Positions 1 through 6,360 of a stretch of DNA of 6,360 bases are shown piece by piece. The position numbers and the translations under genes were made by a program. This DNA is from a virus (Duplodnaviria > Heunggongvirae > Uroviricota > Caudoviricetes): the IMG/VR virus record IMGVR_UViG_2778261419_000001, positions 1-6,360 of that record; one strand, 5' to 3'. The notes beneath the pieces are model-generated. The model made no database searches. It was not told the DNA's origin and worked only from the letters and a program-made list of their open reading frames with translations. How positions within the stretch are numbered: position 1 is the stretch's first letter; every line of letters begins with the position of its first letter.

Positions 1-195
1 CGCTTACCGCTCATGGGCACCTCTCTTTAAGCCATCTTAAATGACTCTGAGGTGTCTGTTAAACCCGTGGCGATTCAGTTATTGGTATCTCATTACGCAC
101 CATTGCTAAGAAAAGAAAATGCTCTGATGGCACAATTAGGAAGGAGTTGCAAACTGCAGTAGGATTTATAAACGGTGTAATGTCAGTATTTAAAT

Positions 196-215
196 AAGCG
201 CCAATTAAGGCGCTT
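196..215 (-). terminator. Stem-loop overlapping the stop codon of the 187-aa gene; possible intrinsic terminator
   Basis: Perfect inverted repeat AAGCGCC (196-202) / GGCGCTT (209-215) with 6-nt loop. On the minus-strand transcript the stop codon lies in the loop and the stem is followed by AUUUAAAU, which is U-rich but interrupted. Confidence 0.35.
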
Positions 216-768
216 TAAATGGAACGGGAACCTGTAAAGCGTTAGCAGCTATCTCAACTATTTTCTCGTTTGGAATATTTGCTAATATAAAGCGTTCCCT
301 TTCTTGTAAAATTTTGTTTATAACGTAATACACGCTTAACATGCTGAACAACATTGATTCTTCCTTTGCTTTGCAAGAATAGTTATCCACTTTCCAGTTT
401 TCAGACACATAGTCATATTTTGATTTAATTTGCTTTGATAGTAATAGAACATTTTTTAATGCTATTCGAGTGTCTCGATTGTAGTAAGAGTAAATATTAT
501 CTATGTTCTTCTCTAGAATAATTGGTTCAAACGTTTTCCCTAAAGAAATATACTGAAAATCTTTGGGTTTAAATGTGTGTTCTTTTATGCTTTTGCTAGT
601 GGTTTTGATAGATTTCTCTAGTATTGATAATTCATCCTCTAACTCAGTGAATATGCTTTTTTTTAATGTTTTTATCTTTTCTTTTTCCTTTCTAGACTCA
701 ACGTATGGCGCTAGTATAATACCCAAAAGAAAAGTGGTAAAAGGAATTAAGCTTTTGATAATGTCCAT
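205..768 (-). CDS. Hypothetical membrane-anchored protein, 187 aa: one N-terminal transmembrane helix followed by a Lys/Glu-rich soluble domain; cargo (moron) gene
   Basis: Intact ORF with ATG at 768-766 preceded by AAGGA 4 nt upstream. Residues about 5-23 (IKSLIPFTTFLLGIILAPYV) are hydrophobic, then KEKEKIK and a charged domain. Hand-sampled GC is about 30%, against about 55% in the terminase genes. No family recognised. Confidence 0.6.
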   Translation of the reverse strand: MDIIKSLIPFTTFLLGIILAPYVESRKEKEKIKTLKKSIFTELEDELSILEKSIKTTSKSIKEHTFKPKDFQYISLGKTFEPIILEKNIDNIYSYYNRDTRIALKNVLLLSKQIKSKYDYVSENWKVDNYSCKAKEESMLFSMLSVYYVINKILQERERFILANIPNEKIVEIAANALQVPVPFKAP

Positions 769-807
769 GGTTTCCTTATTTTTTCATATGATTAACGCTA
801 GGAAAAT

Positions 808-836
808 ATGATAATAAAAAACTAACGCGTACGCAA
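808..836 (-). promoter_or_regulatory. Candidate sigma70 promoter for the 187-aa gene
   Basis: On the minus strand: -35 TTGCGT (+ coordinates 836-831), 17-nt spacer, -10 TATCAT (813-808), about 35 nt upstream of the RBS. Found by eye only. Confidence 0.3.
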
Positions 837-913
837 AAATTATTGTATCGTGTTAAGAGTGGTTACTTTGTCACGTGGCTTAAGCCCGCCGTCGAGCGGG
901 TTTCGTCGTTTGA

Positions 914-922
914 GGGGGGGGG
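914..922 (+). repeat. Homopolymeric G9 tract (C9 on the minus strand) immediately 5' of an ATG
   Basis: Directly visible: GAGGGGGGGGG followed by ATG at 923. The tract doubles as the Shine-Dalgarno region and spacer for the 66-aa ORF. Confidence 0.9.
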
Positions 923-1123
923 ATGAATCAGACTGGTCAACCCAGCTATGCGCTTTTCGCCGGGAATGATAGTAGCAATCTCAAAACGTTTGTTCTTGAG
1001 GTTGATTGCTACCGTACTGAAGACGCGCTATTAGCAATGGAGAAAGCCATAAGCGAATTAAAAATCTGTCAGCGTCAGTTCGGCTATGGAAATGATTCTG
1101 GTGTCAGAGCTATTATTCGATAA
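923..1123 (+). CDS. Small hypothetical protein, 66 aa; 3' end overlaps the convergent 182-aa gene by 11 nt
   Basis: ATG at 923 directly follows a GAGG plus G-run that could serve as SD. Amino-acid composition is not low-complexity. No family recognised. It could be spurious. Confidence 0.3.
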   Translation: MNQTGQPSYALFAGNDSSNLKTFVLEVDCYRTEDALLAMEKAISELKICQRQFGYGNDSGVRAIIR

Positions 1124-1661
1124 TTCTTTCACCAATAATAACTGGCAATGGAATGAGCACTTCCCAGAATGGTTGATACCCTTCGTAAATCTGTGTTGTT
1201 TCACCCTTCCAGTAAAGATCCAGCCTCTGAGATACTTCTACTGGGGAGCAGTTCAGATTTAACAAATTCATATCACCTCTATGATAGTTCGACGATGAGC
1301 TGACTTGAAATATTGGGGTGTCAAGTGGGGATTTTGAAAAGCCTCTGAACCAGGCGGTTTCTTTTACAGACTCACATGCAAAAATTGATTGGAAGCGCGA
1401 TGGTTTTTCAGGGAAGTGTGATTTCCTTCGTTCTTCCAGTAGTATTTCTATTATTGCTCCAAATCGTTCGTCTGAGCTGACGAGGTTTATGTGGTAGTTG
1501 AAAAAAAGATTATTTGCATGCCGGGATACACCGTCGGAAAACAATGAGCTCGTATGAGCCTGAAGTGGAACGATTGGGCAGTACGGTTCTGCTAATTCAA
1601 TTTTCATGCCTGACTTCAGTGTGCGCTGCCTGTCAAGTGTATAAAAAAGATTGTTCGCCAT
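1113..1661 (-). CDS. Hypothetical protein, 182 aa; cargo gene between the Q region and the late promoter/lysis genes
   Basis: Intact ORF with ATG at 1661-1659. GAAGGA lies about 10 nt upstream, which is rather long spacing. Hand-sampled GC about 40-47%. No transmembrane segment and no motif I can assign with confidence. Confidence 0.5.
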   Translation of the reverse strand: MANNLFYTLDRQRTLKSGMKIELAEPYCPIVPLQAHTSSLFSDGVSRHANNLFFNYHINLVSSDERFGAIIEILLEERRKSHFPEKPSRFQSIFACESVKETAWFRGFSKSPLDTPIFQVSSSSNYHRGDMNLLNLNCSPVEVSQRLDLYWKGETTQIYEGYQPFWEVLIPLPVIIGERIIE

Positions 1662-1861
1662 ATTAATGCGTTCCTTCTGATATTGGTTATTTCTGTTGAT
1701 TTAACGATATCAGAATAGATAAGTATAGTGAATACAATGCCGTAAAAGCGGCAGCACGGCTTCCGTATCTGATAGCTTGGCTGGATGAAATGGCGTCGCA
1801 GCGCTCATAGTGGCAACGATTAGCGGACCTCGGCATTTGCCTGTTTTTATATTTAAGGCCG

Positions 1862-1893
1862 CTGACATCTGGAATTGTCGGGGATTTTTTATT
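1862..1893 (+). terminator. tR'-like intrinsic terminator (end of a 6S-like late leader) just upstream of the pinholin gene
   Basis: Stem CTGACA (1862-1867) / TGTCGG (1876-1881) with one G-U pair, then GGA TTTTTT ATT (T-run 1885-1890). The GTCGGGGATTTTTTAT arrangement resembles the lambda tR' end as I recall it. The Q-dependent promoter and qut site should lie in 1662-1861 but I could not pin down hexamers. Confidence 0.4.
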
Positions 1894-1928
1894 CTCTCAA
1901 TTTGCACCCGCATCTGCGAGGTGGAGTT

Positions 1929-2144
1929 ATGAAATCCATGGATAAGTTAACAACGGGTGTCGCCTATGGCACCTCAGCAGGTAGTGCCGGTTACTGGTTT
2001 TTACAGCTGCTCGATAAAGTCACGCCCTCACAGTGGGCAGCAATAGGTGTGCTGGGTAGCCTGGTATTTGGCCTGCTGACGTACCTGACAAACCTTTATT
2101 TCAAGATTAAAGAAGATAAGCGCAAGGCTGCGAGAGGTGAATAA
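1929..2144 (+). CDS. essD: Pinholin, phage 21 S21-type, 71 aa, with dual start M1/M4 (antiholin/holin)
   Basis: Translation [71 protein letters not shown] matches the S21/EssD pinholin as I recall it. GAGG lies 7 nt upstream of ATG 1929; a second ATG sits at 1938. Stop overlaps the next start (TAATG). The ORF-track start at 1875 is probably not used. Confidence 0.9.
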
Positions 2145-2641
2145 TGCCTCCATCATTACGAAAAGCAGTTGCTGCTGCTATTGGTGGCGGAGCAATTGCT
2201 ATAGCATCAGTGTTAATCACTGGCCCAAGTGGTGACGATGGCCTGGAAGGTGTCAGCTACATACCATACAAAGATATCGTTGGCGTATGGACTGTATGTC
2301 ACGGACACACCGGAAAAGACATCATGCTCGGTAAAACGTATACCGAAGCAGAATGCAAAGCCCTCCTGAATAAAGACCTTGCCACGGTTGCCAGACAAAT
2401 TAACCCGTACATCAAAGTCGATATACCGGAAACAACGCGCGGCGCTCTTTACTCGTTCGTCTACAACGTGGGTGCTGGCAATTTCAGAACATCGACGCTT
2501 CTTCGCAAAATAAACCAGGGCGATATCAAAGGCGCATGTGACCAGCTACGTCGCTGGATATACGCTGGCGGTAAGCAATGGAAAGGCCTGATGACTCGTC
2601 GTGAGATTGAGCGTGAAGTCTGTTTGTGGGGGCAGCAATGA
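2144..2641 (+). CDS. rrrD: SAR endolysin (T4-lysozyme-fold muramidase, phage 21 R21 / RrrD-like), 165 aa
   Basis: N-terminal Gly/Ala-rich weakly hydrophobic SAR segment ([20 protein letters not shown]). Catalytic spacing E-x8-D-x5-T in [16 protein letters not shown]. Near-identical to RrrD as recalled. RBS GAGG upstream; translationally coupled to the pinholin. Confidence 0.9.
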
Positions 2642-3081
2642 GCAGAGTAACCGCGATTATCTCCGCTCTGATTATCTGCATCATCGTCTGCCTGTTATGG
2701 GCTGTTAATCATTACCGTGATAACGCCATCGCCTACAAAGAGCAGCGCGACAAAGCCGCATCCACTATCGCTGATATGCAGAAGCGTCAACGTGATGTAG
2801 CAGAACTCGACGCCAGATACACAAAGGAGCTTGCTGATGCTAACGCGATTATCGAAAGTCTTCGTGCTGATGTTTCTGCTGGGCGTAAGTGGCTGCGCGT
2901 CAAAGCTGTCTGTCCAGACATGCATAAAATCACCGCCGCCTCCGGCGTGGATGATGGCACCAGCCCCAGACTTACTGACACCGCTCAACGGGATTATTTC
3001 ACCCTTAGAAAGCGGATTGAAACCAGTGATAAAATGATCCGAGGCTTGCAGCAATACATTCGCACGCAGTGTGTAAGATGA
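2638..3081 (+). CDS. rz: Rz inner-membrane spanin (i-spanin), 147 aa
   Basis: ATG 2638 overlaps the endolysin stop (ATGA). N-terminal TM helix ([19 protein letters not shown]), then a charged coiled-coil-like periplasmic domain. Ends resemble lambda Rz. The ORF-track start at 2626 is GTG; ATG 2638 is preferred. Confidence 0.85.
2837..3037 (+). CDS. rz1: Rz1 outer-membrane lipoprotein spanin (o-spanin), embedded in the +1 frame of Rz, about 66 aa
   Basis: AAGGAG (2824-2829) lies 7 nt before ATG 2837. Signal peptide with lipobox LLGVSGC, then a Pro-rich region ([14 protein letters not shown]...TPLNGIISP) matching lambda Rz1. The ORF-track start at 2831 is TTG. Confidence 0.8.
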
Positions 3082-3461
3082 GCAATCTTTGCTAATTAGC
3101 CATGAAATAGATAAATATCAGGCCAACGATGATTAGTGCCAGGCATCCTAATTGGTCAGAATGGCTGGCATTTGATCGTCTTGCTCTTCTTGCAGTTGAT
3201 TGGACAGCCCTCTGTCCTCGACTTCCTCTTGGCATTCCTCTCATTTATTCTCTCTCAACATTGATATTGAACTGACAGATGATAATTATTTCATGAAAGT
3301 GGTATCTCGTTGATTTGATTACGCTACATAGTCGCCGGATTTTCGCATTTATCGGCATCGGGCGGTGCAAAATTGGCATAATCGAAACGTAGAGTTTTTG
3401 GCTGACAACAGCATTAGCGGTCACCCGGAGAGTGTTGTGAACATGTTAATTACATGACGCT

Positions 3462-3782
3462 TTAGATGCATCGACATTTGATGATGCTTGTCAGACCTGT
3501 CATTTTCTTTGCTTCATTTTCAACATTGAGGAAGTTGGTTGAGCATATTTTTTGATAATCTCCAGTTGTGAATCCTGTTTTATCGATCTTGCGTTTCAAG
3601 GGATTAATCGTTTTGCAAGATGCTCTATGGATTCTGGTAAAGCGTTCGTCAGATTTATTACCTTTACCTCTGGTTCGCTTCAATGCATTGACAACATATC
3701 CGTCTGGATTATCGCCAAGCCAATTACGATAGTCTGATTCACTCTCAGTCTGAAGGTCACTTCTGAATACCTTTATGGACAT
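3462..3782 (-). CDS. Hypothetical protein, about 106 aa, basic, with a C-x22-C-x24-C-x-C pattern; cargo gene at the bor-equivalent position upstream of cos
   Basis: Intact minus-strand ORF. The second in-frame ATG (3782-3780) has AGGAG 7 nt upstream, so it is preferred over the track start at 3800. About 40% GC. No family recognised. Confidence 0.5.
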   Translation of the reverse strand: MSIKVFRSDLQTESESDYRNWLGDNPDGYVVNALKRTRGKGNKSDERFTRIHRASCKTINPLKRKIDKTGFTTGDYQKICSTNFLNVENEAKKMTGLTSIIKCRCI

Positions 3783-3901
3783 GAAGATACTCCTGTGCAT
3801 TTATGGTACGAAGAAATAGCAAAAGTATTTTTACCGTAAATTGCGAATCTACAAAAGCAAAACAATGCGTAATATCAGAGTGAATATTCTGCCTTTAATG
3901 T

Positions 3902-4096
3902 GGGTCCTTCTGATGACCTGAGCTCTCACGGGGCGGAAGGCGCGCGGGTTTTCGCTATTTATGACAATTTTCCGGTTTAAGGCGTTTCCGTTCTTCTTCG
4001 CCGTAACCTAATGTTTTTATTTAAAACACCCCCTGAAAAGAAAGGAAACGACAGGTGCTGAAAACGGGCTTTTTGGCCTCTGTCGTTTCCTTTCTC
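3902..4096. other. cos DNA-packaging site: cosQ-like GGGTCCT (3902-3908), cosN (12-mer 3931-3942), cosB with R3 (3983-4000), I1 A/T-rich putative IHF region (about 4005-4031), R2 (4035-4054, inverted) and R1 (4080-4096)
   Basis: Collinear with the lambda left end as recalled: CGCGGGTTTTCGCTATTTATGA follows the 12-mer; R3 CGTTTCCGTTCTTCTTCG; R2/R1 form an inverted repeat GAAAGGAAACGACAG / CTGTCGTTTCCTTTC; sits immediately upstream of Nu1. Confidence 0.8.
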
Positions 4097-4119
4097 TGTT
4101 TTTGTCCGTGGAATGAACA

Positions 4120-4665
4120 ATGGAAGTCAACAAAAAGCAGCTGGCTGACATTTTCGGTGCGAGTATCCGTACCATTCAGAACTGGCAGGAACAGGGAATG
4201 CCCGTTCTGCGAGGCGGTGGCAAGGGTAATGAGGTGCTTTATGACTCTGCCGCCGTTATAAGATGGTATGCCGAAAGGGATGCTGAAATTGAGAACGAAA
4301 AGCTGCGCCGGGAAGTTGAAGAACTGCGGCAGGCCAGCGAGACAGATCTCCAGCCAGGGACTATTGAGTACGAACGCCATCGACTTACGCGTGCGCAGGC
4401 CGACGCACAGGAGCTGAAAAATGCCAGAGACTCCGCTGAAGTGGTGGAAACCGCATTCTGTACTTTCGTGCTGTCGCGGATCGCAGGTGAAATTGCCAGT
4501 ATTCTCGACGGGATCCCCCTGTCGGTGCAGCGGCGTTTTCCGGAACTGGAAAACCGACATGTTGATTTCCTGAAACGGGATATCATCAAAGCCATGAACA
4601 AAGCAGCCGCGCTGGATGAACTGATACCGGGGTTGCTGAGTGAATATATCGAACAGTCAGGTTAA
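4120..4665 (+). CDS. nu1: Terminase small subunit (lambda gpNu1 homolog), 181 aa
   Basis: Translation MEVNKKQLADIFGASIRTIQNWQEQGMPVLRGGGKGNEVLYDSAAV... is essentially lambda Nu1 (winged-HTH N-terminus that binds the cosB R elements). It overlaps the A start by 26 nt, as in lambda. Confidence 0.92.
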   Translation: MEVNKKQLADIFGASIRTIQNWQEQGMPVLRGGGKGNEVLYDSAAVIRWYAERDAEIENEKLRREVEELRQASETDLQPGTIEYERHRLTRAQADAQELKNARDSAEVVETAFCTFVLSRIAGEIASILDGIPLSVQRRFPELENRHVDFLKRDIIKAMNKAAALDELIPGLLSEYIEQSG

Positions 4666-6322
4666 CAGGCTGCGGCATTTTGTCCGCGCCGGGCTTCGCT
4701 CACTGTTCAGGCCGGAGCCACAGACCGCCGTTGAATGGGCGGATGCCAATTACTATCTCCCAAAAGAATCCGCATACCAGGAAGGGCGCTGGGAAACACT
4801 GCCCTTTCAGCGGGCCATCATGAATGCGATGGGCAGCGACTACATCCGTGAGGTGAATGTGGTGAAGTCTGCCCGTGTCGGTTATTCCAAAATGCTGCTG
4901 GGTGTTTATGCCTACTTTATAGAGCATAAGCAGCGCAACACCCTTATCTGGTTGCCGACGGATGGTGATGCCGAGAACTTTATGAAAACCCACGTTGAGC
5001 CGACCATCCGCGATATTCCGTCGCTGCTGGCGCTGGCTCCGTGGTATGGCAAAAAGCACCGGGATAACACGCTCACCATGAAGCGTTTTTCCAATGGTCG
5101 TGGCTTCTGGTGCCTGGGCGGTAAAGCGGCAAAAAACTACCGTGAAAAGTCGGTGGATGTGGCGGGTTATGATGAACTTGCTGCCTTTGATGAGGATATT
5201 GAACAGGAAGGCTCTCCGACGTTCCTTGGCGACAAACGTATTGAAGGCTCGGTCTGGCCAAAGTCCATCCGTGGCTCCACGCCAAAAGTGAGAGGCACCT
5301 GCCAGATTGAGCGTGCAGCCAGTGAATCCCCGCATTTTATGCGTTTTCATGTTGCCTGCCCGCACTGCGGGGAGGAGCAGTATCTTAAATTTGGCGACAA
5401 AGAGACGCCGTTTGGCCTCAAATGGACGCCGGATGACCCCTCCAGCGTGTTTTATCTCTGCGAGCATAATGCCTGCGTCATCCGCCAGCAGGAGCTGGAC
5501 TTTACTGATGCCCGTTATATCTGCGAAAAGACCGGGATCTGGACCCGTGATGGCATTCTCTGGTTTTCGTCATCCGGTGAAGAGATTGAGCCGCCGGACA
5601 GTGTGACCTTTCACATCTGGACGGCGTACAGCCCGTTCACCACCTGGGTGCAGATTGTCAAAGACTGGATGAAAACAAAAGGGGATACGGGAAAACGTAA
5701 AACCTTCGTGAACACCACGCTCGGTGAGACGTGGGAAGCGAAAATCGGCGAACGTCCGGATGCTGAAGTGATGGCAGAGCGGAAAGAGCATTATTCAGCG
5801 CCCGTTCCTGACCGTGTGGCTTACCTGACCGCCGGTATCGACTCCCAGCTGGACCGCTACGAAATGCGCGTATGGGGATGGGGGCCGGGTGAGGAAAGCT
5901 GGCTGATTGACCGGCAGATTATTATGGGCCGCCACGACGATGAACAGACGCTGCTGCGTGTGGATGAGGCCATCAATAAAACCTATACCCGCCGGAATGG
6001 TGCAGAAATGTCGATATCCCGTATCTGCTGGGATACTGGCGGGATTGACCCGACCATTGTGTATGAACGCTCGAAAAAACATGGGCTGTTCCGGGTGATC
6101 CCCATTAAAGGGGCATCCGTCTACGGAAAGCCGGTGGCCAGCATGCCACGTAAGCGAAACAAAAACGGGGTTTACCTTACCGAAATCGGTACGGATACCG
6201 CGAAAGAGCAGATTTATAACCGCTTCACACTGACGCCGGAAGGGGATGAACCGCTTCCCGGTGCCGTTCACTTCCCGAATAACCCGGATATCCAACAGCG
6301 TATGGAAATATCATTCACCTGA
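4640..6322 (+). CDS. A: Terminase large subunit (lambda gpA homolog), 560-aa ORF; lambda-like to about residue 551, then a divergent 9-codon tail and stop; probably a C-terminally truncated pseudogene
   Basis: GTG start at 4640. N-terminal 550 aa match lambda gpA (641 aa) as recalled. From about nt 6294 the sequence departs (PNNPDIQQRMEISFT-stop here, versus PNNPDIFDLTEAQQ... in lambda), with in-frame TGA at 6320-6322. Confidence 0.8.
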   Translation: MNISNSQVNRLRHFVRAGLRSLFRPEPQTAVEWADANYYLPKESAYQEGRWETLPFQRAIMNAMGSDYIREVNVVKSARVGYSKMLLGVYAYFIEHKQRNTLIWLPTDGDAENFMKTHVEPTIRDIPSLLALAPWYGKKHRDNTLTMKRFSNGRGFWCLGGKAAKNYREKSVDVAGYDELAAFDEDIEQEGSPTFLGDKRIEGSVWPKSIRGSTPKVRGTCQIERAASESPHFMRFHVACPHCGEEQYLKFGDKETPFGLKWTPDDPSSVFYLCEHNACVIRQQELDFTDARYICEKTGIWTRDGILWFSSSGEEIEPPDSVTFHIWTAYSPFTTWVQIVKDWMKTKGDTGKRKTFVNTTLGETWEAKIGERPDAEVMAERKEHYSAPVPDRVAYLTAGIDSQLDRYEMRVWGWGPGEESWLIDRQIIMGRHDDEQTLLRVDEAINKTYTRRNGAEMSISRICWDTGGIDPTIVYERSKKHGLFRVIPIKGASVYGKPVASMPRKRNKNGVYLTEIGTDTAKEQIYNRFTLTPEGDEPLPGAVHFPNNPDIQQRMEISFT

Positions 6323-6360
6323 AAGGGATGACAGCCGTTGGCGAAGGTGAGTTACTCATC

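Follow-up and report, generated by a model that had tools for sequence, protein, structure and literature searches.

We analysed a 6,360-nt stretch of viral DNA (IMG/VR record IMGVR_UViG_2778261419_000001, positions 1 to 6,360; hereafter the window), which is the late region of an Escherichia lambdoid prophage, and focused on a gene for a 182-residue protein that lies between the Q antiterminator gene and the lysis genes. This gene is the larger member of a two-gene cassette of about 1 kb, in which a small partner gene for a 66-residue protein reads in the direction of the late operon and the gene for the 182-residue protein converges on it from the opposite strand. The larger protein is a member of the DUF2441 (BC2332-like) family and has an ADP-ribosyltransferase (ART) fold. 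It had already been annotated automatically, and its family was known but uncharacterised; the conserved partner, the architecture of the cassette and the predicted promoter are what the present analysis adds. The coordinates of the features are collected in Table 1.

The results showed that the ATG-initiated open reading frame (ORF) of 182 codons represents a genuine gene rather than a fortuitous frame. An identical 182-residue product is encoded by 304 publicly available contigs, which come from E. coli, E. marmotae, E. albertii and E. whittamii. The ratio of nonsynonymous to synonymous substitution rates (dN/dS) is 0.12–0.14 against relatives that are 93% identical, and almost every close relative has an undisrupted frame. 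An earlier note on this DNA, made from the sequence alone, had described the ORF as intact and as transcribed against the late operon, and both statements agree with these data. Homologs form 21 close clusters, and an exhaustive profile search yielded 1,210 family representatives, nearly all of which are stand-alone proteins of about 175 residues. A 164-residue allele was considered as a sign of decay and rejected, being mostly an artefact of the start codon chosen in annotation. The only true 1-nt indel was seen in an E. marmotae-type chromosome (L070, ~1453–1460; CP057559.1), where it falls in a T-run at DUF2441 codons 4–6, cuts the N-terminus to a start at M19 and would take away the conserved pair D10-R11. 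The cassette was absent from the complete RefSeq E. coli genomes and from the PLSDB plasmids; the first E. coli search had been swamped by the common holin segment.

The protein matched Pfam DUF2441 (PF10386) with 26.7 bits (gathering cutoff 25; E 6e-6) and PHROG 5663 (phrog_5663) with E 2e-58. PF10386 was also precomputed on all 21 close homologs, and the identical protein carries the NCBI name 'DUF2441 domain-containing protein', while NCBIfam gave no match. The match to BC2332 (Protein Data Bank (PDB) entry 2AUA), the one solved member of the family, reached E 8e-4 with the single sequence and 4e-16 with the family profile, and the fold is the same as that of 2AUA, with the split beta-sheet core of ARTs. 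A profile search of PDB sequences found no ART other than 2AUA, and the link to ARTs is therefore structural only. In agreement with this placement, SCOP assigns 'BC2332-like' proteins to the ADP-ribosylation superfamily (d.166.1.6; PMC3000352), DUF2441 is listed in the Pfam ART clan (PMC7955679), and a ProFunc analysis by the Midwest structural-genomics centre (MCSG) found a match between the 2AUA pocket and diphtheria toxin's catalytic site (PMC3024214).

The earlier note had called the protein an orphan and had named assignment to a known family as the finding that would speak against this claim. Such an assignment was obtained, to DUF2441, a family of unknown function, and with the Pfam and PHROG matches, the BC2332-like fold and the 304 contigs the label no longer applies. 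The note had also set aside the ART superfamily, to whose BC2332-like branch the protein structurally belongs; that it could not place an R-S-E arrangement is understandable, because the classical ART motifs are absent. The searchable literature held no biochemical study of any DUF2441 protein. A Salmonella DUF2441 gene, not necessarily of the present clade, is listed among the differentially expressed genes of uninduced cells (PMC9867438). The only multi-domain member seen was a metagenomic protein of 572 residues (P0059), in which a CHAT (caspase-like) protease domain at the N-terminus (E 2e-28) is fused to a DUF2441 domain at the C-terminus.

Across 124 diverse DUF2441 members (~30% identity), only E76, R79, R89 and E167 were invariant, and all four are present here. 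Conservation of at least 90% was found for D10, R11, S88, Y150 and W151, which the present protein also has. E167 stands where a late core strand (residues 166–171) begins, and R11 where the first strand ends. The catalytic glutamate and arginine of ARTs usually sit at the start of a late strand and at the end of the first strand, and the positions of E167 and R11 appear to match these sites. Judged by position, the candidates for a catalytic triad are R11 or R89, S88 or S92, and E167. Neither a canonical triad (H-Y-E or R-S-E) nor the motifs [YF]-R, S-T-S and E-x-E are evident in the 182-residue sequence, in accordance with the earlier observation that no catalytic motif could be cleanly recognised.

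A protein of this description could be a catalytically inactive, ART-like binding or scaffold protein, or a lysogenic-conversion factor outside phage–phage conflict. The lack of an evident canonical triad would fit such a protein, as would the lack of matches to defence models, the label 'unknown function' that the family has kept since the 2005 structure, and the distribution of DUF2441 among symbionts and bacteria associated with plants, in which no theme is obvious. However, the four invariant residues, taken together with the near-invariant D10, R11, S88, Y150 and W151, form a typical active-site pattern, and E167 would occupy the place of the ART catalytic glutamates. We therefore regard an inactive or non-conflict protein as rather unlikely.

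The pairing of the two genes was assessed in 59 loci gathered via DUF2441 (10 species genomes, 47 viral contigs and 2 contigs; single loci are given by L numbers). The results showed a partner-family match in 54 of the 59 loci, and in 52 of them the two genes were convergent and abutting. In the window the 3' ends overlap by 11 nt (1113–1123), and a stop overlap of 10–11 nt is conserved throughout the present cassette class. The shared 3' end is a near-palindromic 11-mer, TTATTCGATAA, which holds both TAA stop codons. Partners of close and of mid-distance cassettes are homologous (hhalign 95%, E 2e-8); for the most distant tier of partners the comparison was only suggestive (E 6e-4). Partner alignment A7 was too diverse for the locus scan, for which a sub-alignment was used.

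The partner family comprises 79 clusters from Enterobacterales and Pseudomonas, all annotated as 'hypothetical'. It has no Pfam domain, and the 66-residue protein matched nothing in Pfam, NCBIfam or PADLOC. Its dN/dS of 0.03–0.04 indicates strong purifying selection. When loci were sampled from the partner side, a convergent DUF2441 gene was found in all 14 informative viral loci, and a DUF2441 neighbour was found for four of six database members; the two exceptions were a longer, weak partner-like protein (P0247), which has no DUF2441 neighbour, and the partner in L071, which faces an unrelated protein (see below). The partner gene is also present, unannotated, in the record of a Klebsiella phage KP12 clone (GenBank OM835952.1; L065, 4479–4862, minus strand). 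This clone carries a transposase, Dam and Mu-like lysis genes and looks like a Mu-like prophage, not the Vequintavirinae phage named in the record.

DUF2441 also occurs without an intact partner. Three loci (L019, L020 and L033) keep an intact DUF2441 gene with every invariant residue, and the partner is reduced to a C-terminal remnant in L019 and L020 and is absent from L033. Three or four tRNA genes lie immediately upstream of the DUF2441 gene in L020. The partner family was absent beside the cyanobacterial DUF2441 homologs and beside those of Gordonia and Streptococcus phages; the small genes next to DUF2441 in the Streptococcus and Gordonia phages were considered as partners and rejected as unrelated to the family. 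The distant DUF2441 genes of these Streptococcus and Gordonia phages stand in antisense or lysogeny-type positions. In Streptococcus phage Javan642 (L067, 3950–4664), the DUF2441 homolog is the only gene that opposes the early operon, and it overlaps convergently by 26 nt with the gene for an unrelated 59-residue helical protein, so that the proteobacterial layout is echoed with a partner that is not homologous.

These data bear on the reading of the cassette as a classical type II toxin–antitoxin (addiction) pair, in which DUF2441 would be a constitutive ART toxin and the 66-residue protein an always-needed protein antitoxin. The two genes converge with overlapping 3' ends and form no operon, a layout seen in the 52 loci noted above. 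In window-type cassettes only 38 bp with a terminator-like hairpin precede the partner, which would therefore be without a promoter of its own. Furthermore, DUF2441 persists intact in the three loci that lack an intact partner, the partner family is missing beside the cyanobacterial homologs and those of Gram-positive phages, and no DNA-binding or known antitoxin domain was found in the partner. On this evidence an addiction pair is unlikely.

The role of DUF2441 within the cassette is illuminated by an E. coli Mu-like prophage (L071, 3254–3802, minus strand), in which a partner 71–87% identical to DUF2441-linked ones converges on an unrelated 182-residue protein with two transmembrane segments (2TM; phrog_11791; PADLOC '2TM effector' PDLC00712, E 4e-5). 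This apparent effector swap suggests that DUF2441 occupies an effector position.

Table 1. Features of the window, with positions counted from its first nucleotide.
Feature	Position	Strand	Description
Q antiterminator gene, 3' end	3–197	+	Frame 3, ends in ...VIGISLRTIAKKRKCSDGTIRKELQTAVGFINGVMSVFK and a stop; identical to the L013 protein matching PF06530 (E 1e-45)
ORF of 187 residues	205–768	−	One of three ORFs separating Q from the holin gene
Non-coding block tied to the present Q type	812–884	+	Candidate late-promoter or qut-associated site; outside the cassette
T1 hairpin	882–911	+	AAGCCCGC-CGUCGA-GCGGGUUU with interrupted U-tract; directly upstream of the partner, left cassette edge; −12 kcal/mol, z −1.4
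Poly-G tract	914–922	+	9 G; forms or abuts the partner ribosome-binding site, next to its ATG
Partner gene, 66 residues	923–1123	+	Convergent with the DUF2441 gene, same direction as the late operon; ORF call, phrog_10826
DUF2441 (BC2332-like ART-fold) gene, 182 residues	1113–1661	−	Subject of this study
Shine-Dalgarno sequence AAGGA	1672–1676	−	10 nt before the ATG at 1661; purine-rich Shine-Dalgarno sequence conserved there in all cassettes
Predicted DUF2441 promoter	1704–1732	−	−35-like TTCACT (1732–1727), 17-nt spacer, extended −10 TG-a-TATCGT (1712–1704); predicted transcription start ~1697
Small hairpin	1738–1753	−	UGCCG-CUUUUA-CGGCA; just upstream of the promoter; −8.6 kcal/mol, z −1.6
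Late-strand hairpin with U6	1859–1890	+	Right boundary, cassette/holin; ~200 bp from the DUF2441 start codon; −10 kcal/mol, z −2.1
P21-type holin S gene	1929–2144	+	First lysis gene; PF04971, E 2e-35; phage matches
Lysozyme gene	2144–2641		
Rz gene	2626–3081		
Nu1 gene	4120–4665		
Large terminase gene	from 4640		

The results further showed that the cassette is mobile between phages. The segment of the window from ~885 to 1860 is the sole stretch held in common, at ~88–94% identity, with prophages that differ in Q (DUF1133-type), holin (Holin_3_1), terminase and capsid. In two prophages of such an unrelated backbone (L001 and L016), homology starts at ~885, and E. coli lambdoid homology begins at 1887–1890. 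The cassette thus has the mosaic boundaries of an accessory element ('moron'), lying between conserved modules and recurring in unrelated phage backbones. Read in the late direction, lambdoid loci always had the order Q, partner, antisense DUF2441 and lysis genes (Q in 15/15, lysis genes in 20/20). The cassette stands beside cI and a putative AbiC in Pseudomonas, whereas Mu-like prophages have it between the holin gene and Dam; the convergent pairing is the one trait common to all these contexts.

The gap between Q and the lysis genes is an accessory-gene hotspot, as seen from the varied cargo that it holds in sister prophages. The place of the 187-residue ORF is taken by a 294-residue Ion_trans_2-like protein (L014, L069), a porin (L070), ORF6N (L001) or a 757-residue SET-domain protein (L072), and the porin gene (PF00267) of L070 adjoins the cassette in the same antisense orientation. 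The 187-residue gene itself begins 7 bp from the Q stop codon, is directed against the late operon, has a GC content of 29% and encodes an N-terminal transmembrane helix (phrog_31367); its product had no Pfam, NCBIfam or PADLOC match. Another ORF antisense to the late operon, of 112 residues (3462–3800, minus strand), lies in the gap between Rz and Nu1 and is 100% conserved in L014, with no significant family match in any library. None of the known RNA families was relevant within the window. As it moves between phages in a cassette with a small partner, the DUF2441 gene is probably a phage accessory or defence gene.

Upstream of DUF2441, an alignment of 14 diverse cassettes, whose proteins share as little as 27% identity, left only the columns T-G-A-T-A-T-n-n-T invariant. 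These columns correspond to an extended −10 element (TG, followed by T-12, A-11 and T-7), and the block is found in all cassettes of the present class. DUF2441 is predicted to have its own sigma-70 extended −10 promoter, carried by the cassette. A simple sigma-70 consensus scan of the minus strand at 1662–1860 found no promoter with at least 9 of 12 matches; the predicted promoter was missed because only 8 of its 12 consensus positions match. A conserved 5' leader RNA structure around the inverted repeat TCTGATATCGTTA / TAACCAATATCAGA was considered and rejected, as RNAalifold gave no consensus for the 14 sequences and the invariant columns fit the −10 element. At the place of the small hairpin upstream of the promoter, other cassettes have hairpins of different stem sequence. 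The spacing of about 10 nt between ribosome-binding site and start codon given in the earlier note was borne out by the position of the AAGGA sequence.

Terminator-like hairpins on the late strand bracket the cassette. On the partner side, the T1 hairpin is conserved in L001 and L016, with changes in the loop only and a better U-tract; a scan calls a 10-bp terminator there, and T1 is a clear terminator in L001. Beyond the DUF2441 promoter, one or more late-strand terminators are strong in L001 (−16.6 kcal/mol, z −5.4) and in L035. In the window the cassette's own late-strand terminator (1826–1860) has decayed, and the hairpin at 1859–1890 takes that position. This hairpin and its U6 tract correspond to the tR'-like terminator that had been placed about 200 bp from the gene start in the earlier note. 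Homologous elements lie upstream of unrelated holins (P21-type and Holin_3_1) in L001 (9718–9702), L016 and L054–L057 (L054, 5821–5805), and the hairpin is independent both of the Q type and of the cassette. From the DUF2441 stop codon to position 700 the minus strand showed no terminator, and the DUF2441 mRNA therefore probably continues antisense through the partner gene. The poly-G tract before the partner has 9 G in the window, L013 and L017; in L014 and L015, 99% identical elsewhere, it has 10 G. The longer tract joins an upstream ATG ORF to the partner in frame, for a product of 101 residues, and slipped-strand variation may affect translation of the partner.

The interval 1662–1860 had been expected to hold the promoter of the 182-residue gene together with the late promoter and the qut region. 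The first part of this expectation stands, in that the invariant extended −10 element lies there; the sharing with the late promoter and qut is not supported, pR' itself not having been pinpointed. qut sites are Q-specific. Q ends at 197, and the Q-linked block at 812–884 had 88–100% identity only in loci whose Q is 82–100% identical (L013, L014, L015, L017 and L027). A 24-nt partial match to this block (96% identity) was found in L056 and L057, where Q is 49% identical, and the block was absent from L001, L002 and L016, all of which have a different Q. The interval 1662–1853 follows the cassette into these same three prophages with 88–100% conservation. The picture of an orphan gene that is cross-regulated directly at the level of shared promoters has in its favour the predicted DUF2441 promoter within 1662–1860 and the terminator-like hairpin at 1859–1890. 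However, the gene is no orphan, the Q-linked sequence lies elsewhere, 1662–1853 is conserved whatever the Q family, and the hairpin precedes unrelated holins irrespective of Q, which makes this picture very improbable. Cross-talk with late transcription is plausible in another form, as late transcription, once antiterminated, has to cross the entire gene in antisense.

Taking these data together, our best joint reading, to which we assign a probability of about 0.5, is that DUF2441 is an ART-type effector of the lysogen, with a modulating partner and a late antisense switch. In the repressed prophage, DUF2441 would be made from its own promoter; as an ART-type effector using NAD+, it would have a nucleic acid or a protein as its target, its accessory role most likely being exclusion or defence, and the partner would modulate or neutralise it. 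Upon induction, Q-antiterminated late transcription would pass the flanking terminators and the partner would be translated, while transcription antisense through the whole DUF2441 gene would turn the effector off while the phage itself grows lytically. An effector or conflict role would be favoured by the 2TM swap, by the fusion of CHAT to DUF2441, by the accessory hotspot and by the antisense or lysogeny-type positions of the gene in Gram-positive phages.

Several points weigh against this reading. The effector swap was seen only once, as was the CHAT fusion, and no canonical ART triad or motif is evident in the protein. Against PADLOC-DB v2.0, neither DUF2441 nor the partner nor two further ORFs of the window gave a match up to E 1, and the fold model of the partner was poor (predicted local distance difference test score 64) and uninformative. 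T1 was not found in every cassette. Moreover, the logic by which the late transcript expresses the partner cannot be general, as Mu-like and Pseudomonas prophages carry the cassette in other orientations and next to other genes.

A bolder form of the reading is that the cassette is a new prophage immunity module, in which the ART-fold effector, exchangeable for a 2TM membrane effector, would be made by the lysogen to abort or exclude incoming phages and, through the convergent layout with overlapping stops, the prophage's own Q-antiterminated late transcription would switch the module to 'partner ON, effector OFF'. We hold this only tentatively and consider it doubtful; if true, it would mean self-immunity by gene orientation, without a dedicated regulator. 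GiPD474, a 'Gifsy prophage-encoded defence protein' (PMC12724215), was considered and rejected, being an unrelated ATPase-domain protein of the immunity region. Alternatively, DUF2441 could be an anti-defence or host-takeover enzyme for the phage's own infection, similar to AcrIF11 or T4 Alt/Mod, whose own promoter would fire right after DNA entry. The similarity to AcrIF11 is confined to 71 aligned residues with 7% identity, and no Aca-like repressor gene is present; in addition, the orientation against the operon and the slot shared with lysogenic-conversion cargo (porin) fit expression from the prophage better. An enzyme serving the incoming phage is thus quite unlikely.

DUF2441 is a family of 1,200 clusters that has had an ART-like structure since 2005 and has no known activity. 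Handles on it are now provided by the prophage context, by a previously unannotated partner family, by a candidate promoter, by a set of four invariant residues and by an effector swap that occurs naturally, and the prophage context points to a conflict or accessory role. If DUF2441 is an active ART in prophage-mediated defence, it would represent a new enzyme family, possibly with a new target, for ADP-ribosylation of nucleic acid or protein in phage–bacterium conflict; if not, the gene would be an ordinary uncharacterised prophage accessory gene.

Compared with known systems, the nearest characterised structure is BC2332 of Bacillus cereus, which is ~20% identical to the 182-residue protein and has a longer N-terminal part (224 residues); it has not been described with a partner gene or as part of a prophage cassette. 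The ART toxin–antidote pairs DarT-DarG, ParT-ParS, Res-Xre, MbcT-MbcA and TreX-TriX have no sequence similarity to DUF2441, which lacks a canonical catalytic motif, and the DUF2441 partner is unrelated to the macrodomain, Xre and other known antitoxins. The DUF2441 cassette further differs from these pairs in that its genes are convergent with overlapping stops and not co-transcribed, and in that DUF2441 persists without a partner in some loci. The anti-CRISPR ADP-ribosyltransferase AcrIF11 (PDB 6KYF) sits in an acr-aca operon, whereas DUF2441 does not. The 2TM membrane effectors of abortive-infection systems of the CBASS type (cyclic-oligonucleotide-based antiphage signalling; PDLC00712) are unrelated to DUF2441, and a protein matching them replaces it behind the L071 partner, at a modest score and in one locus; the cyclase and sensor genes of such systems are absent.

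BstA and its aba element (bioRxiv 10.1101/2020.07.13.199331) share a concept with the reading proposed here, namely a prophage-expressed defence that is silenced for the phage's own lytic cycle, which the anatomy of the cassette would allow. The sequence of BstA is unrelated to DUF2441, and self-immunity is there reported to depend on a DNA element, whereas the switch proposed for DUF2441 would consist of the partner protein and antisense late transcription.

Accessory morons of lambdoid phages include the prophage porin genes lc of PA-2 and nmpC of DLP12. The DUF2441 cassette occupies the same slot as the lambdoid morons between Q and the lysis genes (porins and Shiga toxin genes) and, like them, has mosaic boundaries; terminator-like hairpins flank it, and a promoter of its own is predicted. 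The cargo of those morons is surface-exposed or secreted, whereas the DUF2441 cassette carries a cytoplasmic ART-fold protein with a small partner.

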